Below, piece by piece: positions 38,418 to 61,245 of a stretch of 64,000 nucleotides of DNA. Location: the NCBI GenBank assembly GCA_023255625.1, contig JAHFLF010000001.1, positions 94,255 through 158,254 of the forward strand, read 5' to 3'. The translations under genes and the position numbers were made by a program. Below the pieces are notes generated by a model that saw only the letters and a list, made by a program, of their open reading frames with translations, was not told the DNA's origin and made no database searches. Source of the DNA: Candidatus Harrisonbacteria bacterium. Lineage in GTDB: Bacteria; Patescibacteriota; Minisyncoccia; UBA6257; 1-14-0-10-44-23. Positions within the stretch are counted from its first letter, which is position 1. Every line of letters begins with the position of its first letter.

Positions 38418-38510
38418 TTTGCTTTTTAGAGGGACTCTCGGAGCGCGACGGCGCGAGAGCGAGGGCAATTTTTCAGCAGAAAAATATGCCTGTGCCCTCT
38501 AAAAAGCAAA
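38418..38510. repeat. Hairpin-core element copy 1: conserved ~60-nt core inside a 17-bp palindrome, at the gyrA 3' end
   Basis: ttgctttttagagggac [ctctcggagcgcgacggcgcgagagcgagggcaatttttcagcagaaaaatatgcct] gtgccctctaaaaagcaa. Core shared with copies at 46073-46195, 51268-51370, 61125-61245. Confidence 0.7.
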
Positions 38511-38521
38511 GCTGCGATATT

Positions 38522-38536
38522 TGTGGTATCATAAAT
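38522..38536 (+). promoter_or_regulatory. tgtggtatcataaat motif (variant of a recurring extended -10-like box)
   Basis: Same tgtggtatactaaat motif occurs at 43746 and 53543. Here it is only ~4 nt before the ATG, which would imply a leaderless transcript. Confidence 0.25.
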
Positions 38537-38539
38537 TCT

Positions 38540-39853
38540 ATGAAACTATCCCGCACTCAAACCATCATCGTGGCCATTGTCGGAGTTATCATCCTGGCCG
38601 GTATTCTTATTTTCCTGGGCATTATTCCGGGTCTGCGCCAGGAGGTAGCAAATCAAAACGATAAATTGACCGGCGACTTAGTCGTCTGGGGAGTTTTTGA
38701 TAGCGAAACTGCGGTTAGTAAAACTCTGATCGCCGACTTTAAAGCCCGACACCCGAATGTCAATATCAGCTACCGCTCGCTCGATGCCCGCACTTATGAA
38801 GATGACTTAATCAATGCCCTAGCCGCCGGCAGCGGCCCTGATGTTTTCATGGTCAAAAACACCTGGCTGCCCAAGCATTACAACAAACTTGATCCGCGCG
38901 ACCCGAAAGAATTTACCGTGGTTAATTTCGCGGATTTATACCCGCAGGTTGCGACTAAAGACTTTGTACGCGAAGGCAAAGTGTACGCAATGCCACTATA
39001 TATAGACACGCTCGCCACAATCTACAACAAAGCATTGTTCGACGCCGCCGGCATTGCGCAGCCGCCGCGCAGCTGGGAGGAGTTCGCGCAGATTATCCCG
39101 GAGCTTCGCAAGCTAGATGAAAGTGGCCGAATAACCCAGGCCGCCGCGGCAATCGGCGGTAGTAATAAAAATATTAATGAGGCAAATGATCTGCTTTTTC
39201 AGATGATGCTTCAGTACGGAGTAGAAATGACTAATGACGGTCTCTCCTCCGCTACATTCGCAAACGGTGGCCAGGGTCCTTTGGACTTCTACCTTTCCTT
39301 CGCTAATTCCAGAAGCACAAACTATACCTGGGATCGCGGCTTCCACTACTCTATTGATGGCTTTGCCGAAGAGTCGGTCGCAATGATTTTTAACTACGGC
39401 TATCAGCTCGAGCAACTCAAAGAAAAAAATCCGTTTTTACAAATCGGCGTCGCCCCGATGCTCCAGCCAAAAAATATTGACCGGCCGATAACCTACGCCA
39501 GCTACTTCGGACTGGGCGTCTCGGCCACCAGTCAAAACAAAACCGTCGGTTGGACATTTGTAGATGAATCAACCGCCGGCGATGGCGCGACGAATGCTAA
39601 ATATCTAAACGAAGCACACCGCTCACCGGCCCTGCGCTCTTTGATCGCCGCCTCGACCAACGACTCTCAAGTCGGCGTCTTTGCCAAGCAGGCACTCATG
39701 GCCACCTCCTGGCCACAAGTTGATAGCACTGCTATTAATGTCGCCTTTGCCGGCATGCTGGAATCAATTGTTACCGGCCAACTGACCTCGCAGCGCGGGC
39801 TGCAACAAGCCGAAGATCAGGTTACCCAGATTATGCAAAGATCAGAAAATTAG
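38540..39853 (+). CDS. Membrane-anchored extracellular solute-binding protein (family 1-like)
   Basis: Start at MKLSRTQTIIVAIVGVIILAGILIF (TM anchor), then a periplasmic binding fold. The track ORF N-extension from 38381 runs through the repeat element and is not real. Confidence 0.55.
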   Translation: MKLSRTQTIIVAIVGVIILAGILIFLGIIPGLRQEVANQNDKLTGDLVVWGVFDSETAVSKTLIADFKARHPNVNISYRSLDARTYEDDLINALAAGSGPDVFMVKNTWLPKHYNKLDPRDPKEFTVVNFADLYPQVATKDFVREGKVYAMPLYIDTLATIYNKALFDAAGIAQPPRSWEEFAQIIPELRKLDESGRITQAAAAIGGSNKNINEANDLLFQMMLQYGVEMTNDGLSSATFANGGQGPLDFYLSFANSRSTNYTWDRGFHYSIDGFAEESVAMIFNYGYQLEQLKEKNPFLQIGVAPMLQPKNIDRPITYASYFGLGVSATSQNKTVGWTFVDESTAGDGATNAKYLNEAHRSPALRSLIAASTNDSQVGVFAKQALMATSWPQVDSTAINVAFAGMLESIVTGQLTSQRGLQQAEDQVTQIMQRSEN

Positions 39854-39863
39854 ATTTTTCTAT

Positions 39864-40343
39864 ATGAAAAAAAATCGCGCTATTCTACTGGCCTCGACCC
39901 TCTTAGCCCTAATATTAATCTCTGGTAGCCAAATAGCACTGGCAGTCGGAGACGCCAGTCAGAAACCACTGCCGGGCGCAGATGTTCAAGCCAGCGACCT
40001 CGGTAACGGCATTATTCCGGATTGCGAGCCGAGTAACACCAATATCGGCCCAGGCGAACCCGGTTGCGGCCTGGACGACGCAATTCAGGTAATTTATAAC
40101 ATCATTAGCTACATCAGCTACATTATTATCCCCATCGCCGTCTTGTTGCTCGGTTATGCCGGATTTACTATAATGACTTCAGCGGGTAACAGCGAAAAAG
40201 TTACTCAAGCATGGAAGATGATCCGGGTAACCGCGATTGGTCTGGCGATTATATTTCTTTCGACGCTGATTGTCAGATACATTTTTAAAGCCCTGGATGT
40301 AAATACCCAAAAATTTGGCCCGACCAATATAGAAATCAAATAG
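39864..40343 (+). CDS. TrbC/VirB2-like small pilin-family membrane protein, paralog 1 (159 aa)
   Basis: Signal peptide (…IALA) then variable Cys-containing region, then two hydrophobic helices separated by a small polar loop. Confidence 0.5.
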   Translation: MKKNRAILLASTLLALILISGSQIALAVGDASQKPLPGADVQASDLGNGIIPDCEPSNTNIGPGEPGCGLDDAIQVIYNIISYISYIIIPIAVLLLGYAGFTIMTSAGNSEKVTQAWKMIRVTAIGLAIIFLSTLIVRYIFKALDVNTQKFGPTNIEIK

Positions 40344-40355
40344 AAATACAATAAC

Positions 40356-40700
40356 ATGCGCCGATTTTCATTATTTTTTTTCACTCTGCTTCTGCCCGTC
40401 TTTGCATATGCTATTACCGACCCCAAAAAAGATGGCATTCCCCTGCCCGACCCGCTCAATGTAAATAGCTTGCCGGAATTATTTGACAAGATCTTCCGCT
40501 TTGCTGCTATTCAAGTTGGCCCTTTCATCGTAATTATCTTCGTGCTGGTCGGCGGCTATCAAATGATTTTCTCCGGCGGTGAGGCGGAAAAATTCTCAAA
40601 AGGAAAAAATACGATTGTTTACACAGTTATCGGCTACGCCCTGCTCTTAATGTCTTACGGCATTGTAGACATAATCAAATCAGCATTAACCGTAAAATAA
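40356..40700 (+). CDS. TrbC/VirB2-like small pilin-family membrane protein, paralog 2 (114 aa)
   Basis: Signal peptide (...FAYA) then ...VGGYQMIFSGGEAEKFSKGKNTIVYTVIGYALLLM.... Confidence 0.5.
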   Translation: MRRFSLFFFTLLLPVFAYAITDPKKDGIPLPDPLNVNSLPELFDKIFRFAAIQVGPFIVIIFVLVGGYQMIFSGGEAEKFSKGKNTIVYTVIGYALLLMSYGIVDIIKSALTVK

Positions 40701-40706
40701 ATTGCT

Positions 40707-41066
40707 ATGAGCAAAGCGTTTCGGTCTCTCGGCGTAAAAATTTTCTTCTGTAGCGTCATCCTTTCGCCCGTTTTCGCCCCAGTTTTTACCCTTGCCGAAG
40801 ATGACCCGCTGAAGGGTCTGCCAAAAGATGCCGCAGGCGTTATGCAGGTTTTAGGAAATATCACCAATTGGCTATTCACTGGTATTCTGATAATTTCTGT
40901 GATAATGATTATAGTAGCCGCATATAAGTATCTGTTTAGCGGCGGCAGCGAAGAGGCAACCTCTGCGGCTCGCAAGACGATTGTCTACGCCGTGATTGCT
41001 CTGGCGGTCGCGATGCTGGCCAAAGGCGTGGCTCCACTTGTAAAAACACTATTATCAGTAAAATAA
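40707..41066 (+). CDS. TrbC/VirB2-like small pilin-family membrane protein, paralog 3 (119 aa)
   Basis: ...ITNWLFTGILIISVIMIIVAAYKYLFSGGSEEATSAARKTIVYAVIALAVAMLAKG.... Confidence 0.5.
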   Translation: MSKAFRSLGVKIFFCSVILSPVFAPVFTLAEDDPLKGLPKDAAGVMQVLGNITNWLFTGILIISVIMIIVAAYKYLFSGGSEEATSAARKTIVYAVIALAVAMLAKGVAPLVKTLLSVK

Positions 41067-41072
41067 CAGTAT

Positions 41073-41453
41073 ATGAAAAAAATCATATTTATTCTGCCGC
41101 TCGCTGTAATGTTTTTAGCATTAATCGTACCAATGACTCCTGCCCTTGCGATTGATTGTCCTGGCGGAGGCAGTACTGCCGGCGGTCAGCCCTGCCAATT
41201 ACCAACCAACGCAAATCTTCAGCCAAATGTTTTGCTGGCAACGATAGAGGAAATTACTGACTGGATGTTTACCGGACTCTTGGTACTTGCGGTTGTTATG
41301 TTGATTATCGCCGCCTATCACTATCTTTTCTCCGGAGGCAGCGAGGAGGGAACGCAAAAAGGCAAGAACTATATCATCTACACAGTTATTGCAATTGCAG
41401 TTGCAATGTTAGCCAAAGGAATTACCTTCATCGTCTACCAGATTCTGAAATAG
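41073..41453 (+). CDS. TrbC/VirB2-like small pilin-family membrane protein, paralog 4 (126 aa)
   Basis: ...ITDWMFTGLLVLAVVMLIIAAYHYLFSGGSEEGTQKGKNYIIYTVIAIAVAMLAKG...; N-region has CPGGG...GQPC. Confidence 0.5.
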   Translation: MKKIIFILPLAVMFLALIVPMTPALAIDCPGGGSTAGGQPCQLPTNANLQPNVLLATIEEITDWMFTGLLVLAVVMLIIAAYHYLFSGGSEEGTQKGKNYIIYTVIAIAVAMLAKGITFIVYQILK

Positions 41454-41561
41454 AAAAATTGACTTTAAAATCGAACGGGCCCGACTGGCAACATACTCCC
41501 TTGCGGGAGACGCCAATCGGGCCTCGTTTTGTGCTGCGCGTGGTAGTGGAGCTCTACCGCG

Positions 41562-42044
41562 CTACTTCTTCTTCTCGAGCGCCCTGGCCTCGAACTGCTG
41601 GTCAGGGAGTCCGGCTTCGACATAGAAGACCGGATAGCGAGCCGTCTCGAAGACGGAGTTCTCGCCCAGGATGGCTCCACCATCCTCGAGCATGATGCGG
41701 AACTTCCGCTTGCACACTCGTTTGCCGATCTCCTGCACATCCTCGATCGTGTACGAGAGACCGGCCGCTACCTCTACACGAGCCCACTGCCCGGGTTGCA
41801 GCGGGAAAGCCGCAACGGCTCCCGGGAACGCCAGCGTGTACTCCCCTCCGTCGAGATTCGGAGGTACGCTCTTCACAGCGCTGGGCCGCCAGGAGACCAG
41901 CACTGCAATTCCGGCTCCAAGAAGGAGTAGGGTGATCGCGGCGGCCAGCCCCATGAAAAGCTTCGTCCGCCCGAAACTGGCCACGCTCACGCAATCCTCC
42001 ACATCATCGGGTGCATCTGCGGAGTTGGCAGGATTGCTACTCAT
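41562..42044 (-). CDS. small membrane protein, possible NfeD-like partner of the SPFH protein (160 aa), high-GC
   Basis: N-terminal TM. 4-nt overlap with the upstream SPFH gene (translational coupling). Function is inferred from the pairing only. Confidence 0.35.
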   Translation of the reverse strand: MSSNPANSADAPDDVEDCVSVASFGRTKLFMGLAAAITLLLLGAGIAVLVSWRPSAVKSVPPNLDGGEYTLAFPGAVAAFPLQPGQWARVEVAAGLSYTIEDVQEIGKRVCKRKFRIMLEDGGAILGENSVFETARYPVFYVEAGLPDQQFEARALEKKK

Positions 42045-43294: not shown

Positions 43295-43422
43295 CGCTAC
43301 CTCCCAGCCCGTAGAACGGGCCGTCGTTAGAAACCAACGGCCCAAACCGGGCCAGCCACGCCGTACGCCAGCGTTGGCCCTATTCGACTGTCCCATGCAG
43401 GCCCCACACGAGGCCAACATTG

Positions 43423-43480
43423 CACGAACAGGATTTTTGCGGACCAGATAAAATGCCCCGCAAAAATCCTGTTCGTGCCC
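43423..43480. repeat. 21-bp perfect palindrome
   Basis: gcacgaacaggatttttgcgg accagataaaatgcc ccgcaaaaatcctgttcgtgc. Confidence 0.6.
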
Positions 43481-43745
43481 TTGAACGCTCTTTAGTTTTC
43501 AAAGTACATTCGGAAAATTCCTGTTTTAGACAGAACTCCCCACCAACAGCATATTTAGCATATTTTCATACCATTTGTCAATCTTTTCCATCGCCAGTTC
43601 AACAAACCGGGTTAGCATTTAACCAATGCGAAGTCCGTACCATAGGGAGCAGTAAAAGGTATCCCTGCTCATCTTGGCGGGAACTCTGGGTTTGCGGGTC
43701 TTTATATTTATCCAACAGCTCAACTATACACAGCCCCGCTATACC

Positions 43746-43760
43746 TGTGGTATACTAAAT
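43746..43760 (+). promoter_or_regulatory. promoter-like tgtggtatactaaat (extended -10 TGnTATACT) upstream of pilin paralog 5
   Basis: Identical 15-mer at 53543 upstream of another small gene. ~40 nt before the ATG at 43800. Confidence 0.35.
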
Positions 43761-43799
43761 TAAAGACATTTATTAATGCTTTAATATTAAAATTATTCT

Positions 43800-44144: not shown

Positions 44145-44241
44145 AAATTTGGAAAAAGTTTCTAGACAAAATCAAAACTGCTCTGAATATTTTTCCGGGC
44201 AGTTTTGATTTTATATCTAAAATACGAGATACTACATCAAT

Positions 44242-44352: not shown

Positions 44353-44402
44353 AATTCCCAATACCATAAATCTACCATGGTAGATTTATGGTATTGGGAA
44401 TT
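44353..44402. promoter_or_regulatory. 50-bp perfect palindrome centred on CCATGG (site 1)
   Basis: aattcccaataccataaatctaccatggtagatttatggtattgggaatt. Shares core ataccata..tctaccatggtaga..tatggtat with 45056-45087. Confidence 0.55.
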
Positions 44403-44430: not shown

Positions 44431-45045
44431 CTAAATCTTAACCTGGAGATTCTTGCCTGGAAATCGCAGTGTGCCAGATTTCGTTATTTCAAAAATATCA
44501 ACATACTGAGTTAAATTGGCTTCGGCGAGATCATCAATAAAACTCTCCGGTATCTGTCGTTTACCGATAAAAAGACTTCGCTGCAAAAATCGAAAACCAA
44601 ACTGACCAAGAGCACCCCTCAACCAATCGCGCTGTTGCCGCATCGTATGTGGAATATCATACGCAATAATAGTGACGCGATCGCTGGGCGTAGCAACATA
44701 TTTTTTTGCGCGTACGATATCAGAAAGATCATTTTCATGCTCATGGACCCAAGTTTTCCCTGCCTGCGTCATACTATAATGAGCTTCACGACCAATTCTG
44801 GTACTCTTAATAAGTCCGTCTTGCTTTAATGCTTGAATCAACCGTTGCGCGCGTTTCCATTCAAGTCGTTTTTGATGCTCATCAAAATGCTTCTTGTCAT
44901 ACTGCTGGCGAACCTGTTGCGCCGCCGCAAAACCCGCCCGAATCCCCCTCTGACGACCAAAGCCGCCACCAATCAAAAAGGATGCTATCTCTGCACTGGT
45001 ACGACCGACATCTGACAAAAAATATAAAATCTGTTTTCTCTTCAT
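44431..45045 (-). CDS. winged-HTH + Cas2-like (VapD/PaaX-C-like) domain protein, putative regulator (204 aa)
   Basis: C-terminal ...VTIIAYDIPHTMRQQRDWLRGALGQFGFRFLQRSLFIGK... resembles the Cas2/PaaX_C ferredoxin-like fold pattern (YD....RR..LR..L...G.R.Q.S.F). Assignment is tentative. Confidence 0.4.
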   Translation of the reverse strand: MKRKQILYFLSDVGRTSAEIASFLIGGGFGRQRGIRAGFAAAQQVRQQYDKKHFDEHQKRLEWKRAQRLIQALKQDGLIKSTRIGREAHYSMTQAGKTWVHEHENDLSDIVRAKKYVATPSDRVTIIAYDIPHTMRQQRDWLRGALGQFGFRFLQRSLFIGKRQIPESFIDDLAEANLTQYVDIFEITKSGTLRFPGKNLQVKI

Positions 45046-45055
45046 GCGTACATAA

Positions 45056-45087
45056 TACCATATTTCTACCATGGTAGAAATATGGTA
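45056..45087. promoter_or_regulatory. 32-bp perfect palindrome centred on CCATGG (site 2), ~11 nt upstream of the start of the 44431..45045 gene
   Basis: taccatatttctaccatggtagaaatatggta. The aa..tt versus tt..aa swaps relative to site 1 preserve dyad symmetry. Confidence 0.55.
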
Positions 45088-45127: not shown

Positions 45128-46048
45128 TTACCTCCTGCGACCATGAAACGCTTTGTGTACTTCGCCAAGCTGCTTGTTAGTCAGGTGCGTATAAATCTGC
45201 GTTGTGGCAATGTTGCTGTGGCCAAGCATTTCCTGAACCGAGCGTAAATCGGCCCCGTTAACCAACAGGTCTGTTGCGAAGAGATGGCGCAGTTTGTGCG
45301 GTGTTATGTGTTCTGCAATACCGGCTTTGCGCGCATAAAAATTGACCAGCTGTTGCACGGAGCGCGGAGAGATCACGCCAAGCACCCTCGGTGGTTTTTT
45401 CGATTTTAAAGATGGCTTACTCAACCCAACAAACAGCCACTCCTGCGCGTCGCCACGCTTGTCTAAATACCGCTTCAAAATCTCGCGACAGCTGTCTGAT
45501 AAAAACACTACGCGTAACTTCTCTCCTTTCCCGCGCACGGTAAACTCACCGCGGCTAAAATCAATATACCGCTTTAATCCGCAAAGTTCGGAGACACGCA
45601 GCCCGGTTGAAAACAAGGTTTCTAAAATGGCGCGATCGCGGAGCGCGCGCAAGCCATCCCCCTCTGGTGCAGCAAGGAGCCGCTCGAAGTCGCGATACTC
45701 CGGTATCTGAATCTGGCGCTGGGCAATTTTTGGCAGCTCAATTTTATCGGCTGCAAGCACATCATAATCGTGTTTGGCCAGATACTTTAAAAAACTGCGA
45801 ATCGCAATAACATAATAGTTCTGCGTGATTTTCTTCAGCATCGCGCCATCCCGTCCGGGCGTACGTGCAAGCGTGATGCGGAATTCACGAACCACCGACT
45901 CGGTAATCTGACTTGGCTTACTAATTTTTTGCTGGCGAAAAAACGAACTCAAATAATGTTCATAATTAACCCTCGTCTTCGGCGAGCGATTCTTTTCAAT
46001 CTCTAAATAATCCAAATACTGCTTGAGAAGGTCATCAATTTGAGCCAT
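45128..46048 (-). CDS. Tyrosine site-specific recombinase, XerC/XerD-like
   Basis: N-terminal SAM-like domain, catalytic R...HKLRH...LGHSNIATTQIYTH. Start at MAQIDDLLKQY. Confidence 0.8.
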   Translation of the reverse strand: MAQIDDLLKQYLDYLEIEKNRSPKTRVNYEHYLSSFFRQQKISKPSQITESVVREFRITLARTPGRDGAMLKKITQNYYVIAIRSFLKYLAKHDYDVLAADKIELPKIAQRQIQIPEYRDFERLLAAPEGDGLRALRDRAILETLFSTGLRVSELCGLKRYIDFSRGEFTVRGKGEKLRVVFLSDSCREILKRYLDKRGDAQEWLFVGLSKPSLKSKKPPRVLGVISPRSVQQLVNFYARKAGIAEHITPHKLRHLFATDLLVNGADLRSVQEMLGHSNIATTQIYTHLTNKQLGEVHKAFHGRRR

Positions 46049-46072: not shown

Positions 46073-46195
46073 CGTAAAACATATTCGGGTCAGCGCTAGC
46101 GGCAATTCTCGGACCGCGACGGCGGGAGAGTATAGACCGATTTTTCACCAGAAAAATACGGACGGTGCCGTCTGCGCTGACCCGAATATGTTTTA
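46073..46195. repeat. Hairpin-core element copy 2 (inside a 20-bp perfect palindrome)
   Basis: gtaaaacatattcgggtcagcgc [tagcggcaattctcggaccgcgacggcgggagagtatagaccgatttttcaccagaaaaatacggacggtgccgtct] gcgctgacccgaatatgttttac. Confidence 0.7.
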
Positions 46196-46936
46196 CCTTA
46201 TTTCAATCACCGCCGGATCCGGATGAAATTCCAACTCCTCGTCTGAATACACAATCAGCGGGGCAAGCTCAACGCGCGCCGACTCTCCTGCCCCAATAAT
46301 CCACATCTCATGAGCCATATTGTGCGAATCATTATGTGCCTGCATCCCCCGCTGTATTCTGTGTCTCTGATATTGCTTAAGCCGTAGCTCACACCAATTC
46401 CCAATTCGCCCGCCAAGAAACGCTTCAAAAAACTTTTTCATTTTCGAATCGCGCGACGGATCATAACGCAGATCAGATTCCAAAATCCTTTTACCGACCC
46501 AATCAGAGTTTGCATCATAAAACTCCTGAATATTTTCGCGCATTCCATACACCGGCACTAATCGCTTGTACAATAACTTCCAGTACGGATTAACCGGTAA
46601 CCGCAGGCGGTATGACGCCTCGGTGACAAAGTGATTAAGGCAAACCTTGTTCGCCGCCGCCGCATTACCGTGCTCTTTCGCCCGTCGCCAGCCAAAAAGT
46701 CCCAGTGCGAGCGCCGCACAAAATCGGGCTGTAAAAATCCGGCCGGTGCGCACGCCAATCAACACATCAAAATCACTTTCTTCATCAACATTACCAACGG
46801 CCAGCGAGCCGCTGCCAAAGACAAATTCTATAAACGGAATATGCCGAAAAATCCAGGTGCGCTTAATAAACAGATGCCATTTTTTATCGTTTAGTAATTG
46901 CTGAACTCGGAACTCTCTGTTCTTTTCCTCTGTCAT
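46193..46936 (-). CDS. Nucleotidyltransferase (Pol-beta superfamily) domain protein
   Basis: FGSGSLAVGNVDEESDFDVLIGV is the GS-x9-13-D.D nucleotidyltransferase motif. Start at MTEEKNREF. Confidence 0.55.
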   Translation of the reverse strand: MTEEKNREFRVQQLLNDKKWHLFIKRTWIFRHIPFIEFVFGSGSLAVGNVDEESDFDVLIGVRTGRIFTARFCAALALGLFGWRRAKEHGNAAAANKVCLNHFVTEASYRLRLPVNPYWKLLYKRLVPVYGMRENIQEFYDANSDWVGKRILESDLRYDPSRDSKMKKFFEAFLGGRIGNWCELRLKQYQRHRIQRGMQAHNDSHNMAHEMWIIGAGESARVELAPLIVYSDEELEFHPDPAVIEIR

Positions 46937-46946
46937 AAATCCGCAA

Positions 46947-48056
46947 TCATTCATCTGAAGCTGGTTTCTCGAGCCGTTTGACATCAAGCTCCATACTTTC
47001 ACCGGTGATGCGGGTAACATCTTTATCAACCTTGCCAAGCTCCTTATAGGCGGCGTTGAAATGGTTAACTGTCGTGCCGAGGGAGTTGTGAACCTTACTC
47101 ATATACTCATCATAGGCCTTTAAGTGCTTGCCCAACTCATCAACCCGCTTGATTATATCCTTGGCGCCCTGCTCAATCTTAAACGCTTTGAATCCATAAA
47201 TTACTGAGGTCAGATATGCATAAAAAGTTGTCGGCGAAACAATAATGACATGCTTTTCGTGCATCGCGTAGTCAATCAAATTGCGAGTATTAACCTTGAC
47301 TGAACCAACCTCATTGACTAACAGGTCATAATAAATACCTTCAGCCGGAATAAACATAAAGGCAAACGGCAAAGTCCCCTCCTCCGGCCGGATATATTTT
47401 GCTGTTTCGTCAATTCTTTTCTTCAAATCATTTTTAAATTCTTTTTCTAACTCCTCGCGCTGATTGTCATCAATGGCATTGGTAACGCGGTTATAGTTAT
47501 CCAATGAAAATTTTGCATCAACGCAGATGATGCCCTCTTTGGTCGAGATGATAGCATCCACGGTTTCGCCATTTTTAAATGCATACTGAAGCGAGTACTG
47601 GCCAGGTGAGAGCATATTCGACAAAATCAGCTCCAAAGAAAGCTCGCCCAAATTTCCGCGCTGTTTCTGATGCTTTAAAGTTTTTTCCAGATTCGCCAGT
47701 TGTTCTGCGATAGTCACAAACTGCTTGGTCTGTTCATTCGTTTTCGTTTGCTCGCGTGTGACATCAACCAAAGACTTATTCATCTGTTCGCTAATCTCGC
47801 GCAAAAGCTGCTGACTTTGGCTAAACTGATGCCGGACACTCTCGGTCATCTCTTTACGGCTCTCGCCAAGTTTAGAGTCCACCGACTGGGTAAGTTGCTG
47901 AAGCTGCTGCTGAAGCAACACCATGCCCTGGCCATCTTCTTTGGGCATGGCCGCGCGACGCAAATACCACCAGATGAAGGTAAAACCCAAGAGCAAAACA
48001 ATCAGCAAAATTACAAAGTAAAGAAGTGTCATATGGCCAGTATAACCAATATTCAA
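46947..48056 (-). CDS. rmuC: DNA recombination protein RmuC
   Basis: N-terminal TM, long coiled-coil, conserved RmuC C-terminal domain (...FMFIPAEGIYYDLL...HVIIVSPTTFYAYL...). Confidence 0.75.
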   Translation of the reverse strand: MNIGYTGHMTLLYFVILLIVLLLGFTFIWWYLRRAAMPKEDGQGMVLLQQQLQQLTQSVDSKLGESRKEMTESVRHQFSQSQQLLREISEQMNKSLVDVTREQTKTNEQTKQFVTIAEQLANLEKTLKHQKQRGNLGELSLELILSNMLSPGQYSLQYAFKNGETVDAIISTKEGIICVDAKFSLDNYNRVTNAIDDNQREELEKEFKNDLKKRIDETAKYIRPEEGTLPFAFMFIPAEGIYYDLLVNEVGSVKVNTRNLIDYAMHEKHVIIVSPTTFYAYLTSVIYGFKAFKIEQGAKDIIKRVDELGKHLKAYDEYMSKVHNSLGTTVNHFNAAYKELGKVDKDVTRITGESMELDVKRLEKPASDE

Positions 48057-50204: not shown

Positions 50205-50460
50205 ATAACATGGGGATAGGGATTAGAGGTTGCTAGATGCTGCTAGAGGTTGATAGGTAAACTTAGAGGAAACTAGCTTGGCGCGGCCCGAGTACGGGCC
50301 GCGGCGGTTTCGTTCTAACCCGAACCCCTTGCTAGCATCCTCTAGCAGCATCTAGCACCCTCTAGCAGCCTCTAGCAGCCTCTAGCAGCCTCTAGCAGCC
50401 TCTAGCAGCCTCTAGCAGCCTCTAGCAGCATCTAGCAGCATCTAGCCCCGTTGACTTTAT
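50205..50460. repeat. Tandem array: ~13 direct copies of 10-bp unit CTCTAGCAGC (50338-50455), mirrored by 3-4 inverted copies (50212-50245) across a GC hairpin (50281-50306)
   Basis: ...ctctagcagcatctagcaccctctagcagcctctagcagcctctagcagc...; upstream gctagatgctgctagaggttg; centre gcggcccgagtacgggccgc. In the divergent region between gpmI and the 50525 gene. Confidence 0.8.
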
Positions 50461-51163: not shown

Positions 51164-51267
51164 CGATCTAGTCCTTGCTGCCGCGGGTTGGCGAAAGCCA
51201 ACCCGCGGCACATCTTTTTTATACTAAAAATTAACCAGCCGTCACCGCTCAATACAGCTCTATTTAG

Positions 51268-51370
51268 CGGAACAGCCGGGATTTTTATTCCTGGGGACTC
51301 TCACAGGCCGACGGGCCGAGAGCGAGGGTGAATTTTCTCCAGAAAATTACACCTGTGCCCCAGGAATAAA
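51268..51370. repeat. Hairpin-core element copy 3 (inside a ~20-bp palindrome)
   Basis: ccgggatttttattcctggggac [tctcacaggccgacgggccgagagcgagggtgaattttctccagaaaattacacct] gtgccccaggaataaaaatcccgg. Confidence 0.7.
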
Positions 51371-51527
51371 AATCCCGGGCACTCCGTTAACCTATTGACC
51401 TATAACGGCTCTCTACCGTATACTTCTAGTGAGACTTTTCTCACTTTACTATCTAATGTATTTCTGTTCCCTAAAAATTTCATGATCGAGATCGTGGTTG
51501 TGAAGAACATACGGGACATCTACTCAT

Positions 51528-53067: not shown

Positions 53068-53165
53068 AATTTAGTTAGTTGGTTAATTAGTTAGCTGGTT
53101 AGTTGGTAGAAACGAAATTCCAGTCTCGCTAACTAACAAACTAACTAGCTAACCAACTAACCAAT
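53068..53165. repeat. TTAGTTAG-type inverted-repeat hairpin downstream of rny
   Basis: tagttagttggttaattagttagctggttagttgg ... cgctaactaacaaactaactagctaaccaactaacc. Confidence 0.55.
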
Positions 53166-53537: not shown

Positions 53538-53542
53538 TTTTC

Positions 53543-56809: not shown

Positions 56810-56816
56810 TAAATAT

Positions 56817-57668
56817 ATGGAGAACGCCCCAGTTTCCCAAACCGTAATTCCCCGCCCAAATCTGCCCGGCCCGATCGCTCTGCTTAAACAAGCATGGTCT
56901 GTGTTTGGCAAAAATTTCTGGCTATTTCTGACAATTATATCCGCGCCAACCATACTCGCCGCCGTTGTCGCCGTTATGCGCGCTAAAGCACTCCCGCAGC
57001 CACTCACCACAACGCCTGGCGGACTCATCCTGGAAATAGTTAATTTTCTAGTATCGATTTTAGCTGGCGGCGCAATCATTACCGCCGGACTAAAATTAGC
57101 AGCCGGAGAAACTACCTCCGCAGACCAGGCATATCGCCGTGTCTTTAATTTATTTTTCCCGTTCCTGTGGCTGAATATCCTGATGCTCCTTATCATCTGG
57201 GGCGGCACAACTCTGCTGATTATCCCGGGCATCATACTCTCGCTCTGTTTTTTCTTCACTGGCTTTATCTTTTTCAGCGGAACCGCTAAAGGAATAGACG
57301 CCCTGCTACTTAGCAAGGATTACGCCAAAGGTTATACAGCTACAATCTTCGGCCGTTTGTTAGTGGTCGGATTAATACTCATGATTCCGCTTCTCTTAGT
57401 AACTATCCCCTTCGGCGGAACGAACACGGTGGTCGGCACTTTAATCATCACCATAGTTAGCGGCGTAATGCTACAACCGCTGATAGTGCTTTATTCTCTG
57501 GAAATTTTCAAAAAAATCCAGCAGATAAAAGGAGTTCTGCAGCCGCAGTCATCTAAAAAAGCAAAGCGAACTATGTATGCGTTAGCGGTACTTGGCCTGC
57601 TAAGCGGTATTGGGCTGACCATCCTCTTTCTCAAGCTCCTTGCTGCCGTACCAGTTCAGATGCATTAA
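56817..57668 (+). CDS. hypothetical polytopic membrane protein (283 aa)
   Basis: Six or more TM helices. Confidence 0.45.
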   Translation: MENAPVSQTVIPRPNLPGPIALLKQAWSVFGKNFWLFLTIISAPTILAAVVAVMRAKALPQPLTTTPGGLILEIVNFLVSILAGGAIITAGLKLAAGETTSADQAYRRVFNLFFPFLWLNILMLLIIWGGTTLLIIPGIILSLCFFFTGFIFFSGTAKGIDALLLSKDYAKGYTATIFGRLLVVGLILMIPLLLVTIPFGGTNTVVGTLIITIVSGVMLQPLIVLYSLEIFKKIQQIKGVLQPQSSKKAKRTMYALAVLGLLSGIGLTILFLKLLAAVPVQMH

Positions 57669-57718
57669 AATACATAGCCCCCTAACGGCTATTTGGCAGT
57701 AATGTCCATGCTCTAGGC

Positions 57719-58438
57719 ATGCTATCATATCAATATACATATCTCATCGGGGATTTTTTAATATTTTTTCCGGTCTGGTTACTGCTGCTTGTCCATAGAA
57801 AGGATTTGTGGAAAATAATTTTCTTGGCTGGCCTTGTTTTCGGCCTCGTTTCTTTTCTCGCAGAACCTCTTTTTTTGAGAGATTACTGGCATCCCGGCTA
57901 TCTCAAACCGCTTTTTGTTGGAGGATATCAAATCGGATCACTTGAAGATTTTTTGTATGGATTTTTAAAAGGCGGAATAGCGAGCGTCATCTACGAAGAG
58001 ATCTTCGGTAAATTTCTCGCAAAACGAAAAAATAGAAAGCATCACTGGGTTTGGTTTTTGGCACCATTTTATATGGGAGGCGTGGCACTCTTTATCGTGC
58101 CCATCTACCTCTTGAACCTTAACTCGCTATACGCGGCGCTGCTCGCATCACTCTTTTGTTTTAGTTTTTATGTATGGCTCCGCAAAGACCTACTGTTTGA
58201 TTCTCTCATGAGCGGGATTCTAGTCGGCGCCCTATCCATTGTAGGCCTCTGGATACTTACTCTCATATTTCCTGAAATGTTCCACTTGTACTGGAAATTA
58301 CACAATTTAAGCGGCATATTCGTCGCCGGAGTACCCGTTGAGGAGCTATTGGAATCCTTCGCGGTTGGCATGATCGGCGGTCCATTCTATGAATTTTTCA
58401 TGGGGAGACGATTCCTAAAAACACAAAAAAACGGCTAA
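57719..58438 (+). CDS. polytopic membrane protein, possibly lycopene-cyclase-domain family
   Basis: Repeated TM bundles with a PxEE-type motif (VAGVPVEELLESF). Weak assignment. Confidence 0.35.
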   Translation: MLSYQYTYLIGDFLIFFPVWLLLLVHRKDLWKIIFLAGLVFGLVSFLAEPLFLRDYWHPGYLKPLFVGGYQIGSLEDFLYGFLKGGIASVIYEEIFGKFLAKRKNRKHHWVWFLAPFYMGGVALFIVPIYLLNLNSLYAALLASLFCFSFYVWLRKDLLFDSLMSGILVGALSIVGLWILTLIFPEMFHLYWKLHNLSGIFVAGVPVEELLESFAVGMIGGPFYEFFMGRRFLKTQKNG

Positions 58439-58456
58439 GCCGTTTTTTTGTGTTTG

Positions 58457-58529
58457 TGCTCTCGCTAGGAATCGAACCTAGATTTGCCACTTCGCAGGCG
58501 GCTGTCCTATCCATTGAACGACAAGAGCA
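58457..58529 (-). tRNA. tRNA-Arg (anticodon GCG)
   Basis: Minus read GCTCTTG TC GTTC AATGGAT A GGAC A GCCGC CTGCGAA GTGGC AAAT CTAGG TTCGATT CCTAG CGAGAGC A. One G-U in the acceptor stem and one in the anticodon stem. Confidence 0.65.
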
Positions 58530-58597
58530 TACTATTTAATTATCCACTCCGACGCTCGTTACTACGAGGTCGGAGAGCCGGCTTACTGCGTCGGCTT

Positions 58598-58614
58598 TGA
58601 ACGACAAGAGCATT
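58598..58614. repeat. 17-nt direct copy of the tRNA-Arg 5' end
   Basis: ttgaacgacaagagcat at 58598-58614 equals 58514-58530 (minus-strand ATGCTCTTGTCGTTCAA). The copy sits 67 nt upstream of the gene on the tRNA strand. Confidence 0.6.
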
Positions 58615-58748
58615 GCTTTCGGTGCATAGAGCATATCTAAAAATACCAGAAAAGACAACCTGCAAATAATGTATTACTGCCTAGACACCTTAACTCTCTA
58701 ATTTAAACTCGGGAATTTCAGTTGGCCATTTATCACCGTAGGTATATC

Positions 58749-59165
58749 CTATCGTTTAACTTCCGTAAGCTCAAAGGTTTCATGATCTTTTTCAAATTTG
58801 ATGCGAAAATTCTCAAAGAAAACTTCCTGGCCCAATAGAATATTCACATTTTCACTATCAACATACCATGCGGGAACCGTTATTGATTCCTTCAAATCTT
58901 TAATCTTGAAAGTGAATTGACCACAATAGACGGAGACCTTGCCGCTACCGATGCCCATGATTTCTTTTTTCTCTTCAAGTTTAATGCCAAGCGCCTTGGC
59001 GTATTCAATATTGAGTGTTGTTGTGTCAGCGCCAGAATCAATAATCGCAGGAACTTCTCCATAGGTTCCGTCCGCGAACTTAAGCTCCAAGCCGAGAATG
59101 GGCCGTTTGACAATCCTTTTTCTTGAATCAAAAACTCCGATGGCAGGCGAATAACGAAATTTCAT
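58749..59165 (-). CDS. Retropepsin-like aspartic protease (clan AA)
   Basis: ...AIIDSGADTTTLN... catalytic D-S/T-G-A motif in a ~130-aa single-domain protein. Confidence 0.65.
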   Translation of the reverse strand: MKFRYSPAIGVFDSRKRIVKRPILGLELKFADGTYGEVPAIIDSGADTTTLNIEYAKALGIKLEEKKEIMGIGSGKVSVYCGQFTFKIKDLKESITVPAWYVDSENVNILLGQEVFFENFRIKFEKDHETFELTEVKR

Positions 59166-59390
59166 TTAAAAAAATACATTTGGGGCGTAGCCGAGCTGCG
59201 GAAGCACCTTAATAACCACTTTGTTTTCCTTATCAGCCGTTTTCTTAAGCAACTCGGAAAGACTTTCGCCAATGGCAATAATTTTCTGATAATCTGAAGT
59301 AAGCGCAACCCATTTATTAATGTGCACTTTTGTGATAACGGCTGCTGACCATGCTTTTACAATCTTTTCATCCATTTTTATATTATACAC
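59166..59390 (-). CDS. small hypothetical protein (74 aa), adjacent to and coupled with the retropepsin gene
   Basis: Stop abuts the protease start (no gap). No motif. Confidence 0.35.
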   Translation of the reverse strand: MYNIKMDEKIVKAWSAAVITKVHINKWVALTSDYQKIIAIGESLSELLKKTADKENKVVIKVLPQLGYAPNVFF

Positions 59391-59457
59391 TTGTTAAATC
59401 AACAGAGCAAGATTCCGGCCGATTATCTCTACTCCCTACTTCTACTGAATTCTTTTT

Positions 59458-59910
59458 TCAGAGCCCCATCCGACGCATGATTATCTCGCCTAATCCCTCG
59501 TTGTAATCAAAAGGTCTCAAGTAATGAGACAAGAAGGCGTCTGCTTTTGCGGCGAGCGGACGCGGCAACAACAGACGAACAAAGGTAGAAATTTTTTCCC
59601 GCGGCCGCAAAATCAACTCAACATACTCCGCATTAATTTCGATAATTGAATAAGCGTTCAAATTATTAAAAAAATACCGCGGCTGATCGTCTACCTTAAC
59701 GCCCTCTTCGGTAAGTTCATAAGTATAACTAACCGGCTGCGCCCGCCCCATAAATAAAATCAGGAGCTCGCCGATAATCACAAACAGGGCGAATAAAATA
59801 TTTTTTTGAAAAAGCGCAAAAATTACTAAAATGCCGGCAATCGCTATGCTCGCGAGATGCCAGCCGGCGCTGCGTTCACTATGCGCAAATTCAGGAGCGG
59901 TCCATTGCAT
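59458..59910 (-). CDS. hypothetical membrane protein (150 aa)
   Basis: Two N-terminal TM helices then a soluble domain. Confidence 0.4.
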   Translation of the reverse strand: MQWTAPEFAHSERSAGWHLASIAIAGILVIFALFQKNILFALFVIIGELLILFMGRAQPVSYTYELTEEGVKVDDQPRYFFNNLNAYSIIEINAEYVELILRPREKISTFVRLLLPRPLAAKADAFLSHYLRPFDYNEGLGEIIMRRMGL

Positions 59911-59945
59911 CAGTACAGTATACAGCTAGCGGACAGCGCCGACCA

Positions 59946-61122
59946 GATGTATGATATCTCTATGAAATGCTACTACTGCGGCAACAATCCAGTCCCGCAT
60001 CAATTCGTTAAAGCCAACGAGACAATGGCGCTGCTTCTTGAACCGTTGGATAGATTCAGCCAATGGATTGGACTGCATAAACTACTGGATCCGATTTTTT
60101 ACAAAGCCACGCCTTTGGGCGTAAAAATTTTAGAAAACCTGGGCATTGTCCGGTTTACTCAAGATATCTCCCAGGTGCGCACTACCCGCTCTAAAGTCAT
60201 CTGGACGGAGGCGGCGCGGCGCGGAATCACTATGGAGCAGATGCATATTCTTGGTCGGGCGACTGATTTTTTCCGTGCCATCATAAATGGCAAAATAATC
60301 TATTTTGAAAGTTTGCCAATCCCCCGTCATCTGAATCTCGAATCAGAACAATGGCTGGATAACAAAATGCAACTCAAAAAACGATTGCTCGAGGCCGGAC
60401 TGCCCGCGCCGCGTGGTGGCGGCTTTAAAAAATGGCCAGAGATGAAGCGCGCTTTTTCAATGCTCAAAAGGCCGGTGATTATCAAGCCGGCGATTGGTTC
60501 GCGCGGCCGTCATACGACTACCAACATTCATACTGAAAAGCAATTGAAAGAGGCCTATCGAGCGGCTAAACAGATTGCAGAACGGCTGGTTATGGAGGAG
60601 CACCTGATTGGCAGCGTCTACCGAGCCACAATTGTTAATGACAAGCTCGTCGGCGTTTTACGCGGCGACCCGCCACGCGTCACCGGTGATGGCATAAGTA
60701 CGATTACCGAACTTGTTCAGTTAAAAAATAAAAATAAGCACGCGGATGTGCACGAGGTTGAAATCACGCCTTATATTGAAAACTTTCTGTCTAGAAACAA
60801 TTACACGACGGAGACAATTTTACCAAAAGGACAGACAATTGATCTGATGGAAAAAATCGGCGTTGGCTACGGCGGTTACAAGGCCGAGGAAATCGAGATA
60901 ACCCATCCGGAAACAAAACGCATTTTAGAAGAGGTCGGCCGGCTCGTGAATTTCCCGGTCATGGGTTTTGATTTTATTGTTCAAGATATTACTAAAGATC
61001 CGCACACGCAAAACTGGGGAATCATCGAATGCAATTCCCTGCCCTTCATTGACCTACATCACTTCCCGCTGGAGGGCCAGCCCGTCAATGTCGCAGGATA
61101 TGTTTGGGATTTGTGGAAGTAG
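59946..61122 (+). CDS. ATP-grasp domain protein (RimK/cyanophycin-synthetase-like)
   Basis: ...RPVIIKPAIGSRGRHTTT...EEHLIGSVYRATIVNDKLVGVLRG...GFDFIVQD...WGIIECNSLP: ATP-grasp central and C-domains. Start at MYDISMK (the track start overlaps the upstream gene). Confidence 0.55.
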
Positions 61123-61124
61123 AC

Positions 61125-61245
61125 TCGCGTTATTCCGTCCTGCCCAGACGGGGCCGGCATATTTTTCTGCTGAAAAATTGCCTCTGGTCTCGCTCCGCCG
61201 AGCTGCGACACGCCCCGCTTAGGGCAGGACAGAATAACGCTCGCA
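61125..61245. repeat. Hairpin-core element copy 4 (inverted orientation, inside a 19-bp palindrome) between convergent genes
   Basis: gcgttattccgtcctgccc [...ggcatatttttctgctgaaaaattgcctctggtctcgctccgccgagctgcgacacgcc...] gggcaggacagaataacgc. The reverse complement of the core matches copy 1. Confidence 0.7.

Follow-up and report, generated by a model that had tools for sequence, protein, structure and literature searches.

Hairpin elements with a three-way-junction tip at gene ends in Patescibacteria

The window, by which we mean the whole 64-kb stretch of DNA analysed, carries a short repeat embedded in long palindromes, and the question it raises is whether this is a structured RNA or DNA element whose closing stem is free to vary, or a miniature mobile element whose insertion targets are the loops of existing terminator palindromes, the two readings offered by the first-pass annotation. 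The source genome belongs to the Patescibacteria, close to Harrisonbacteria. The window repeats are members of a large family of folded elements of ~60 bases, located at the tips of long hairpins right after genes in the tiny genomes of Patescibacteria (CPR). The family is apparently uncatalogued; Rfam 15, queried with three different variants of the element, yielded no match, including among E-values as high as 10.

A covariance model of the core, run over the 64 kb, detected exactly four copies (67-78 bits, E-values of 1e-14 to 1e-17; next best match, 19.5 bits), and the inverted repeats together with the model recovered all four at the positions previously annotated. Each copy is a three-way junction of 59-61 nt, formed by two hairpins (P2 and P3) and closed by a near-perfect P1 stem of 21-31 bp. 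The spacing from arm to arm is exactly 61 nt in copies 1-3. The short motif TTTTCNNCAGAAAA is enriched (11 matches versus 0.9 expected). A fifth, divergent copy lies outside the range annotated before.

38403..38525, plus strand: copy 1, whole hairpin (78.4 bits, inverted repeat and fold)
38403-38433 / 38495-38525: copy 1, P1 arms (31 nt, 97% complementary)
38434-38494, plus strand: copy 1, core
38437-38459: copy 1, P2 (CUC-GGA-GCGC-GACG-GCGC-GA-GAG)
38464-38490: copy 1, P3 (GGCA-A-UUUUUC-AGCA-GAAAAA-UA-UGCC)
46074..46196, plus strand: copy 2, whole hairpin (67.0 bits)
46074-46104 / 46166-46196: copy 2, P1 arms (31 nt, 90% complementary)
46105-46165, plus strand: copy 2, core
51264..51390, plus strand: copy 3, whole hairpin (71.9 bits)
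51264-51296 / 51358-51390: copy 3, P1 arms (33 nt, 85% complementary)
51297-51357, plus strand: copy 3, core
61127..61240, minus strand: copy 4, whole hairpin in inverted orientation (73.5 bits)
61127-61156 / 61211-61240: copy 4, P1 arms (30 nt, 80% complementary)
61151-61212, minus strand: copy 4, core (covariance-model match)
1348..1473, plus strand: fifth copy (19.5 bits, P1 of ~30 bp)

Copy 1 begins 2 nt past the gyrA stop codon, ends 14 nt short of the start of the next gene and is in sense orientation relative to both neighbours. Copy 2 is antisense to both neighbouring genes, its left arm lying 25 nt from the start of a Xer-type integrase gene (45131-46048, minus strand) and its right arm overlapping the stop codon (46193-46195) of a minus-strand gene (46193-47038). 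Copy 4, the most divergent core of the four (P2, GUC-GCA-GCUC-GGCG-GAGC-GA-GAC), is found between convergent genes and begins 4 nt past the stop codon of the plus-strand gene at 59857-61122. The fifth copy has the P2 module of the others (UCUC-GCA-GGCC-GAGGA-GGCC-GA-GAG), with P3 swapped for a GC-rich hairpin (CUGCGCG-AGCCG-CGCGCAG). Its right arm overlaps the stop codon of a minus-strand gene (1469-2791), and its folding energy is -79.8 kcal/mol in the sense strand versus -69.5 kcal/mol in the antisense strand.

It had been proposed that every copy lies where an intrinsic terminator would be expected. This stands for copies 1, 2 and 4, which abut or overlap stop codons (distances of +2, -4 and +4 nt, respectively), but not for copy 3, which is placed past a canonical terminator (51179-51210 plus T run) and before a promoter-like site (51395-51424) of the RNase Y gene (rny). 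A terminator scan of the window called none of the four copies and no U-tract was found in any, whereas the genuine terminators of the window show an A-tract, a GC stem and a T-tract, unlike the element. Copy 4 is preceded by another terminator-like hairpin; since copies 3 and 4 both lie beside separate hairpins of this type, a terminator role is unneeded there. Among ~20 long-armed copies, the distance from the outer end of P1 to the facing gene's stop codon is -8 to +7 nt. Starting at that stop codon, P1 as a rule takes up the spacer in the outward direction, and between convergent gene pairs the hairpin occupies the entire spacer.

The three-way-junction fold gave z-scores of -9.5 to -10.4 against shuffles in the four window copies. 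The short P2 hairpin combines a G-N-A / G-A internal loop that never varies with an inner stem of 4 bp that is hypervariable; the two sides of this stem, described earlier as variable yet complementary, are so in all four copies, with copy 4 adding GCUC/GAGC. Larger variants of the element carry extra hairpins in the P2 domain. The P3 hairpin, AU-rich and nearly invariant (A-UUUUC-ANCA-GAAAA-U), contains a bulged A as well as a covarying base, and its outer 3-4 bp, absent from the first-pass annotation, covary too (GGCA/UGCC, CCG/CGG, GGUG/CACC). Differences between the cores of copies 1 and 3 are almost only at paired positions or in loops. Covariation, checked against shuffles in 64 distinct cores, was found as compensatory changes on both sides in 16 of the 18 core pairs; 95.4% of cells were paired versus 72.8% in shuffles, none of 500 shuffles matched the observed pairing values, and slid controls collapsed. 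Of 84 copies, 72 were more stable as the sense strand (the energy difference averaged -6 kcal/mol; p = 1.6e-12, Wilcoxon), and the core pairs included 19 G-U versus 3 A-C. Judged from these sequence comparisons, the fold is clearly under selection, and the selected part is the ~60-nt three-way junction of one specific strand.

P1 is free in sequence and strictly kept in pairing. Copies 1-4 lie inside long arms (30-33 nt, 80-97% complementary), with a perfect stretch of 21 bp in copy 3 (51276-51296 / 51358-51378). Each copy had been placed in a different perfect inverted repeat, but not all of these are unrelated: copies 2 and 4 have arms that are homologous over ~25 nt and differ by four compensated double changes and one wobble. 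At orthologous sites of related metagenome contigs the element is kept while P1 and the inner P2 stem vary compensatorily: in the pair L148/L160, with flanks 85-93% identical, 6 of 21 arm positions differ, mostly compensated, and 3-4 of the 4 inner P2 pairs have also changed within an otherwise identical core, while L170/L139 show three compensated changes in the arms. The structured-element reading, in which the closing stem is free to vary, is well supported, because covariation in P2 and P3 is strong, one strand folds better and P1 changes are compensated in paralogues and orthologues alike. Compensated change in DNA palindromes can also arise mechanically, by template switching, without selection on RNA.

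The core is not restricted to the window. The covariance model matched 31+9 further times in genome loci and 89 times in metagenome loci, and at least 86 distinct core copies were counted across genomes and metagenomes; many of the sampled copies are kin or come from the same populations, so these counts do not represent independent events. The P3 and junction sequence is kept across distant lineages, namely Kaiserbacteria, Taylorbacteria, Paceibacterota, Saccharibacteria, Minisyncoccia and MAGs labelled Gammaproteobacteria. Some contigs are multi-copy (three copies within 6 kb in L067, two in L106), identical cores are found at different loci, and other genomes hold whole-hairpin families of ~135-170 nt. 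The 22 kb of synteny in four relatives (81-86% GyrA identity) contained no copy.

Orientation does not follow the neighbouring genes. In 28 copies the best-folding strand runs antisense to the two flanking ORFs, against 10 where it is sense, and of 49 copies on skewed contigs, 45 fold best in the C-rich strand; the tip would thus mostly lie outside host mRNA in its folded sense. Larger variants are found directly downstream of tRNA genes, in the same direction as the tRNA (twice in L038, and in L066, L103, L104 and L124).

Among the alternatives, the one that survives best, although we consider it fairly unlikely, is a miniature non-autonomous mobile element. Its unit would be the core plus an inner stem of ~8 bp, entering the apex of existing gene-end hairpins or perfect palindromes through a single-stranded intermediate and an enzyme encoded elsewhere, with the three-way junction as a cis-acting recognition structure. 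Cores identical at 62 of 62 positions sit in unrelated perfect outer arms of 20-25 bp in L204, L187, L209 and L224 (arm identity 0.43-0.63, background 0.49), and likewise in L163/L183 and L180/L102, although gene conversion between copies could also yield identical cores. The conserved unit is sharply bordered, at (A)TTTTGCCG...CGGCAAAA(T), and every subfamily has a locus-specific palindromic extension outside it. Long hairpins at gene ends that have a different tip or a small loop, and no core, occur in the window and its relatives as well; however, no empty site was found whose palindrome was intact, and in contigs of the GC-rich subfamily perfect stems of at least 20 bp occur almost only with the core, so free targets would be very rare. 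The patchy distribution, with the element missing from the closest relatives' syntenic spacers, is consistent with mobility, and a strand-specific fold indifferent to gene orientation is more what one would expect of a structure acting in cis in transposition than of an mRNA element. Nevertheless, the arms lack the U-tracts of the terminator palindromes proposed as targets, no target-site duplication was seen, and some arms (copies 2/4; L148/L160) are inherited and evolve in place instead of being independently targeted, which indicates long residence and not recent insertion. The earlier remark that no transposase is associated holds for the window: neither there nor beside the multi-copy clusters was a transposase, reverse transcriptase or HUH protein found, and searched viral contigs gave no matches to the element. 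The integrase beside copy 2 is a syntenic housekeeping gene, present too in relatives without the element.

A family of small RNA genes, trans-acting or part of an RNP, is an unlikely explanation, in which RNase III would cut P1 as a processing stalk, the ancestral gene would be co-transcribed with tRNAs, and the short multi-copy forms would be dispersed paralogues, rather like small-RNA-derived SINEs. The long-range conservation of P3 and the junction, the tRNA-linked larger variants and the strand-specific folding are compatible with it, and a conserved body enclosed by long stems of free sequence is reminiscent of processing stalks, such as those used around the RNA body in rRNA and tRNA operon processing. 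However, no promoter-like site was found upstream of the window copies, where P1 starts 2-4 nt after stop codons and leaves no room for a promoter, the majority of copies are antisense to local genes, and copy number and presence differ between close lineages.

We regard as distinctly unlikely a site acting at the DNA level, either a single-stranded hairpin for a recombinase or HUH/Y1 enzyme (like attC, REP/RAYT or IS200/IS605 ends) or a palindrome growing by intrastrand template switching up to the coding sequence. The conserved bulged base and invariant stem of P3 may resemble protein-recognised DNA hairpins, as in IS608 and attC; orientation tracks GC skew, that is, replication direction, rather than a need of transcription; and arm compensation is very fast relative to the flanks, with arms that stop at stop codons, which fits templated arm copying limited by coding selection. 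On the other hand, the better-folding strand, mostly the C-rich one, serves by the usual skew rule as template for the leading strand and not as the exposed lagging-strand template, G-U enrichment is more typical of RNA, and conserved outer R-box-like ends, cassette arrays, the REP GTAG signature and a nearby Y1 or integron integrase gene were all missing. Ordinary intrinsic terminators or chance resemblance are hardly credible, since the stop codons abutted by three of the four copies and the bidirectional-terminator-like ends of the copy 2 arms (GTAAAAC, GTTTTAC) stand against the negative terminator scan, the missing U-tracts and the different look of genuine terminators, and as a sufficient explanation they are refuted by the covariance-model scores, the dozens of homologues elsewhere, metagenome matches included, and the covariation against shuffles.

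Of the known systems, REP-type repeats, which serve their hosts as 3'-end barriers, come closest. Like the RAYT-mobilised REP/BIME/REPIN sequences of Proteobacteria, the element is multi-copy and strictly intergenic, frequently lies at the 3' end of a gene or separates convergent genes, occurs in either orientation, forms stable hairpins, and combines persistence at a locus with multiplication and compensated hairpin evolution. In REP/REPIN, however, the conserved part is a palindrome arm that bears the GTAG signature, and it is the loop that varies freely, whereas the present element keeps its tip across phyla and leaves its arms free, and no GTAG, REP doublets or RAYT gene were seen. MITEs with long RNA hairpins (Correia/NEMIS, ERIC/IRU, RUP, BOX) are of similar size (~100-170 nt), and the whole-hairpin families of other genomes (CAX-type, Minisyncoccia) share their conserved inverted ends; Correia transcripts are cleaved by RNase III. 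MITEs differ in their conserved terminal inverted repeats, target-site duplications and IS-element origin, while here no duplication was seen, the window copies have no termini in common, and conservation of the core reaches well past any single genus. Insertion sequences aimed at hairpin or REP loops (IS1397, ISKpn1; IS110/IS1111-family in REP or attC sites) provide a precedent for the apex insertion that mobility requires, but they are autonomous, kilobase-size and encode a transposase, and the present element is non-coding, of 60-80 nt, with no partner detected. Integron attC sites are also imperfect palindromes at gene 3' ends, varying from gene to gene, with one folded active strand, extrahelical bases and a tip that may be branched; they conserve the outer R''/R' boxes and vary at the tip, the opposite of the element, which has core genes (gyrA, rny) and not cassettes as neighbours and lacks an integron integrase. 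Three-way-junction riboswitch aptamers and small self-cleaving ribozymes share conserved junction and loop nucleotides and a free-sequence P1, but, compared by sequence and fold, the element lacks an Rfam match and a hammerhead core (CUGANGA...GAAA), lies outside 5' leaders and has a P1 far longer than that of any aptamer.

What follows on a role as RNA, on a partner and on how the family spreads is inference. Whichever the direction of transcription, P1 would form a transcript hairpin of 20-30 bp or more right past the stop codon, which may act as a 3'-end barrier or processing site. It would be a plausible substrate of RNase III, the enzyme expected to cut 30-bp RNA stems, whose gene is in the window.

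25635..26339, minus strand: RNase III gene (Ribonuclease_3 plus dsrm domains; annotation of the identical locus L125)

The tip could be a strand-specific recognition module for a putative partner. The family would multiply inside genomes, with the core plus inner stem as the unit, and copies would then persist at their locus while the arms and the inner stem of P2 are renewed by compensated change, perhaps by way of templated arm-to-arm copying and gene conversion between copies. Our best overall account, offered tentatively and with somewhat less than even confidence, is that of a widespread family of extragenic hairpins, mainly in Patescibacteria (CPR), with a strand-specific three-way-junction tip, a P1 of free sequence and a proposed role at gene ends.

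Inspection of the sequence and a repeat finder placed four copies of the element in the window, all of them where the first-pass annotation had reported them. Each carries a core of about 60 nt with two hairpins (P2 and P3) at the tip of a long closing stem, P1, formed by two arms.

Copies of the element in the window, with arms as given by the repeat finder
38403-38525 (+), copy 1, next to gyrA and an SBP gene: arms 38403-38433 and 38495-38525, 31 nt, 97% complementary
46074-46196 (+), copy 2, next to an Xer-type integrase gene: arms 46074-46104 and 46166-46196, 31 nt, 90% complementary
51264-51390 (+), copy 3, next to rny (RNase Y): arms 51264-51296 and 51358-51390, 33 nt, 85% complementary, 21 bp perfect
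61127-61240 (-), copy 4: arms 61127-61156 and 61211-61240, 30 nt, 80% complementary

The distance between the arms is exactly 61 nt in copies 1, 2 and 3. Folding gave the same arrangement in all four copies, a three-way junction closed by P1 and bearing two hairpins, with z-scores of -9.5 to -10.4 against shuffled sequences. P2 has the form CUC-GNA-NNNN-GNCG-N'N'N'N'-GA-GAG, and P3 the form (GGCA)A-UUUUUC-AGCA-GAAAAA-UA(UGCC). Covariation was previously noted for the inner P2 stem; it is seen in the outer P3 pairs as well (GGCA/UGCC, CCG/CGG, GGUG/CACC), and nearly all differences between the cores of copies 1 and 3 fall in paired positions or loops. Copy 1 has an AUG, within the 3' side of its P3, that is in frame with the downstream SBP gene (38486-38542), and the gene call of a public assembly (L126) begins the SBP protein at that AUG, 18 codons too early, which shows that gene callers can be misled by the element.

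A covariance model of the core (R1), trained on 22 cores, matched copies 1-4 in the window with 67-78 bits and nothing else above 19.5 bits. This next best match is a fifth, divergent relative at 1348-1473 (+), which has a P1 of ~30 bp, a P2 module as in copies 1-4 and a GC-rich P3, and whose right arm overlaps the stop codon of the gene at 1469-2791 (-). The retention of P2 with an exchanged P3 suggests that the tip is modular, and the divergence of this copy indicates that the family is wider than R1 detects.

By its GyrA homologues the window belongs to Patescibacteria/Parcubacteria, close to Harrisonbacteria, and loci L125 and L126 represent the window's own genome. A pattern scan of a genome collection with one genome per species returned matches that were mostly due to chance, in AT-rich genomes; true homologues among the matches listed came from Minisyncoccia, Paceibacterota, Kaiserbacteria, Taylorbacteria and Saccharibacteria, as well as from unclassified Patescibacteria and from MAGs labelled Pseudomonadales or Gammaproteobacteria. 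In metagenomes, a pattern of higher specificity yielded 99 loci, with 89 model matches, and the genome and metagenome copies, once pooled and de-duplicated, amount to at least 86 distinct copies. Six pattern matches in viral contigs, with a top score of 27 bits, included no convincing member. At the gathering threshold Rfam 15 recognised only tRNAs in the whole window and 14 further loci, and for three variants searched at E-values up to 5-10 it returned only matches far below threshold, to families with no relation to the element, miRNA precursors among them. Searches of the open-access literature yielded no description of it. The window copies are members of a large and apparently uncatalogued family of structured hairpin-tip elements, and the finding is more than a local curiosity.

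Larger variants, found in Kaiserbacteria, Taylorbacteria, Paceibacterota and others, retain the P3 block and the GAGA sequence and have an enlarged P2 domain. They often lie directly 3' of tRNA genes and in the same direction as the tRNA (L038, twice, L066, L103 and L104). Several variants that follow tRNA genes, among them L038:4100-4560 (-) and L066:4040-4640 (-), have a third copy of the arm in the order A - hairpin - A' - core - A, so that A' can pair upstream or downstream in two mutually exclusive hairpins. Near the window copies this third arm copy is absent, while L124 has one. In the L124 hairpin 3' of tRNA-Leu (L124:20151-20402) the right arm reproduces exactly 20 nt of the 3' end of the tRNA gene (CAAGTCCCACCCTCAGCACA), by which the stem would mimic the tRNA acceptor/T helix, and the tip contains the P3 motif only. 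At L104:847-985 the P3 block directly follows tRNA-Trp and is itself followed by a sequence resembling the 3' half of a different tRNA and ending in CCA (CCGATTCCCTCATCGCCCGCCA).

The fold of the core is under selection, on one strand. In 64 distinct cores, standard pairs occupied 95.4% of the pair cells, compared with 72.8% in shuffled sets; none of 500 shuffles attained the observed values, and the signal collapsed in controls with slid partners. The covariation, a check proposed in the first-pass annotation, is strong in P2 as in P3, with both sides changed in 16 of 18 pairs, with the caveat that compensated change in palindromic DNA can arise for mechanical reasons. Invariant positions comprise the P2 internal loop (G-N-A facing G-A), the AG preceding P3 and the G following it, and the P3 stem UUUUC/GAAAA with its bulged A. 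A GAGA is likewise invariant; it consists of the GA on the 3' side of the P2 internal loop and the bases that open the outer P2 stem. The strand reading GAGA...UUUUCAGCAGAAAA, here called the sense strand, folds more stably than its complement in 72 of 84 copies (mean difference -6 kcal/mol, p = 1.6e-12), and its core pairs include 19 G-U against 3 A-C; the copies are related and these counts are not independent events, with the direction the same in every subfamily. The core shows both compensatory covariation above controls and an excess of G-U over A-C on one strand, as generally expected of a structured RNA under selection.

The sequence of the closing stem varies freely, yet the stem is inherited and its changes are compensated. 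The four palindromes had been described as different from one another, which holds only in part. No 16-mer is common to the outer arms of the window copies at up to 2 mismatches; the arms of copies 2 and 4 are nevertheless homologous, and their alignment over ~25 nt contains one wobble and four pairs in which both bases have changed. The element is also kept at orthologous sites in related metagenome contigs. L148 and L160 have it between flanks that are 85-93% identical; their differences fall at 6 of 21 arm positions, where most are compensated, and in 3-4 of the 4 inner P2 pairs, while the rest of the core is identical. L170 and L139, with a flank identity of ~88%, differ by three compensated arm changes. 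P1 and the inner P2 stem thus turn over faster than the adjacent coding sequence with their pairing kept. Such turnover may reflect selection, or it could equally come from templated copying between the arms, a process that quasi-palindromes of E. coli are known to undergo. Compensated P1 changes at paralogues and orthologous sites, with the covariation of the core, support the earlier reading of a structured element with a freely varying closing stem. A local tandem duplication is indicated at L135:5383-5567, where a core occurs twice in identical form at a distance of 123 nt and the two copies have arm sequence in common; P3 is changed there (AAAUUCUUAGUAAAGAAUU).

Relative to the stop codon of the gene that it faces, the outer end of P1 falls at -8 to +7 nt in ~20 long-armed copies, with offsets of +2, -4 and +4 nt in copies 1, 2 and 4, and in convergent gene pairs (L146, L172 and L179) the hairpin occupies the whole spacer. 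The expectation that every copy sits where a terminator would be found is borne out only in part: copies 1, 2 and 4 are at stop codons, and copy 3 is an exception, located between a canonical terminator and the rny promoter. A scan for intrinsic terminators (GC hairpin with U-tract) called none of the four copies and no T run follows their arms; it detected separate terminators beside copies 3 and 4. The genuine terminators of the window differ from the element in having a GC stem together with an A-tract and a T-tract. Promoter scans of each window copy found no promoter-like sites upstream.

The orientation of the element is mixed, with a tendency, if any, to be reversed. The sense strand runs opposite to both flanking ORFs in 28 copies and in their direction in 10, and among 49 copies on contigs with clear skew 45 have it as the C-rich strand, indicating that the strand selected for folding is mostly not the host mRNA strand. 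The AT-rich families (L130, L158, L169, L147, L181, L190, L136 and others) show extreme GC skew, -0.2 to -0.37 over 5-13 kb; their genes are on the G-rich strand, and the better-folding strand of the element is almost always the C-rich one. By the usual skew rule, the selected strand is not the lagging-strand template either. The element is quite possibly, and we propose it tentatively, a REP-like resident repeat in which the long stem P1 would act as a transcript-end hairpin and the tip would serve as a strand-specific recognition module for a putative partner.

The main rival is a true mobile element that inserts at the apex of palindromes, which we consider unlikely. In the GC-rich subfamily the conserved unit comprises the core and an inner stem of 8-9 bp, (A)TTTTGCCG...CGGCAAAA(T), with a sharp border, and four copies (L204, L187, L209 and L224) have cores identical at 62/62 positions within perfect outer arms of 20-25 bp whose likeness is at background (0.43-0.63 vs 0.49); both observations favour mobility. 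A locus-specific palindromic extension past the conserved unit, which also favours mobility, was present in every subfamily, measuring 6-10 bp in the type labelled Pseudomonadales, 8-14 bp in Minisyncoccia and 20-30 bp in the GC-rich type and the window. Four syntenic relatives (GyrA identity 81-86%) had no copy in 22 kb each, where the window has two; their spacers are unrelated to those of the window and too distant for an empty palindrome, or its absence, to be read.

Several results speak against simple insertion into terminators that were already there. No empty palindrome was found in a search for inner stems without core or in an all-against-all comparison of flanks, which gave only pairs with both sites occupied. 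Perfect stems of at least 20 bp in contigs of the GC-rich subfamily occur almost only with a core, either that of the family or another complex tip, and the arms lack a U-tract. Identical cores in unrelated arms could instead stem from gene conversion between copies, in agreement with inner P2 variants that are common to several loci and differ at one orthologous site. The suggested insertion of a miniature element into terminator loops is possible, although unproven; inherited arms contradict it in the case of some copies. The statement that no transposase is associated with the element stood: no transposase domain was found in the scanned ORFs of the 64-kb window (contig of 601,890 bp), near the copies or otherwise, and none lies next to clusters elsewhere. 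The RmuC, PIF1-like helicase and Xer-type integrase genes near copies are syntenic or ordinary genes, and the integrase gene beside copy 2 is also present in relatives without the element. About 750 nt separate copy 2 from the RmuC-family gene (46950-48056, -). In E. coli, the RmuC protein restricts inversion at short inverted repeats; the closeness of the gene to copy 2 is probably coincidental, the gene being syntenic in element-free relatives.

A specific form of mobility, to which we give a low probability, would make the three-way junction the cis-acting structure of a tiny mobile element that either homes to apices or builds an inverted copy of the target flank on insertion, its arms being kept in register by templated copying. 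It would account for identical cores in unrelated perfect arms, for the palindromic extensions of all subfamilies, for arms ending at stop codons and for the hypervariable yet complementary inner P2 stem. To our knowledge, neither apex homing by an element of 60-80 nt nor inverted target duplication is among the described modes of transposition.

The closest known elements are REP-type extragenic palindromes and hairpin-forming MITEs. Those of their defining features that were tested are lacking in the window, where the layout is reversed, with a conserved tip and free arms. Copies of a MITE within one genome have conserved terminal inverted repeats, while in the window related inner arms, themselves diverged, are confined to copies 2 and 4. 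A MITE also has a related autonomous IS with its transposase in the same genome; the window ORFs that were scanned contain no transposase domain. Other genomes contain repeats of a whole 135-170-nt hairpin with conserved, MITE-like ends, as in the CAX-type family (CAACTTTC...GAAAGTTG). The direct target-site duplication of MITEs is absent from these and from the window copies, and the flanks of the element are inverted complements rather than direct repeats. REP sequences and REPINs are imperfect palindromes of 20-40 nt with a 5' GT[AG]G signature, often in inverted doublets, whereas in our alignments the tip is conserved and no GTAG is present; no RAYT (Y1 transposase) gene was seen in the scanned window ORFs.

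Integron attC sites have R''/R' boxes (RYYYAAC ... GTTRRRY) and occur in cassette arrays with IntI. By eye, no conserved outer boxes appear in the four-copy alignment, the neighbours are gyrA, the SBP gene, rny and similar core genes rather than cassettes, and the sole tyrosine recombinase is the syntenic Xer-type gene, found also where the element is absent; attC was rejected. IS200/IS605-type ends and PATEs are characterised by a pair of subterminal hairpins that resemble each other, by a TnpA(Y1)/TnpB partner and by a fixed target of 4-5 nt on the 5' side of the left end. In the element P2 is unlike P3 and free in sequence, and no conserved flanking tetranucleotide was seen. Candidates rejected by eye, besides attC, were a hammerhead (the window copies lack the CUGANGA/GAAA core), a k-turn in P2 (the bulged strand has only 3 nt, the middle one variable), a GAAA-tetraloop receptor, a tmRNA or tRNA-like 3' end (seen in L104 and L124 only), an AAV-like T-shaped terminal repeat and an internal promoter in P3.

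Long perfect gene-end hairpins with different tips were observed in the window (7261-7328, 43422-43478, 27881-27949 and 14233-14300) and outside it (L209:3558-3699, L172:4977-5061, L121:21135-21380 and L124:21540-21730). Several have a T-tract in the 5' arm and an A-tract in the 3' arm, such as GATTTTTGCGG...CCGCAAAAATC, opposite to the polarity of terminators, and those of L209 and L172 bear other complex cores of 86 and 47 nt. A perfect palindrome of ~30 nt, ATGTTACAGCGTACTAGTACGCTGTAACA, is present twice in the window, 13 kb apart (1303-1333 and 14191-14226). Two related perfect palindromes with the core TCTACCATGGTAGA (44353-44402 and 45056-45087) flank a gene with a PaaX_M domain (44431-45072, -), one of them overlapping its start codon; they look like candidate operators for autoregulation of this gene. 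Intergenic arrays of short tandem units form inverted blocks at 5860-5947, 50224-50384 and 53071-53164, of the TTAGTTAG/GGTTAGC and CTAGCAG/CCTCTAG types.

Patescibacteria (CPR) account for much of bacterial diversity and have very small genomes whose non-coding repertoire is almost unknown. A family covariance model would improve the annotation of their intergenic regions and prevent gene calls that run ORFs into the element, like that of the SBP gene in one assembly. If true, the mobile-element reading would mean a new kind of tiny mobile element with a previously undescribed mode of transposition. The layout of the element is the inverse of that of REPs and MITEs, its tip being conserved and its arms sequence-free, perfectly paired and ending at stop codons, and the unusually fast compensated change of the stem offers a natural system for the creation, maintenance and tolerance of palindromes in streamlined genomes. 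A 60-nt fold kept from Saccharibacteria to Paceibacteria and to MAGs labelled Gammaproteobacteria, present in many copies per genome and not in Rfam, is a candidate for a new RNA or DNA structural class with a putative partner.
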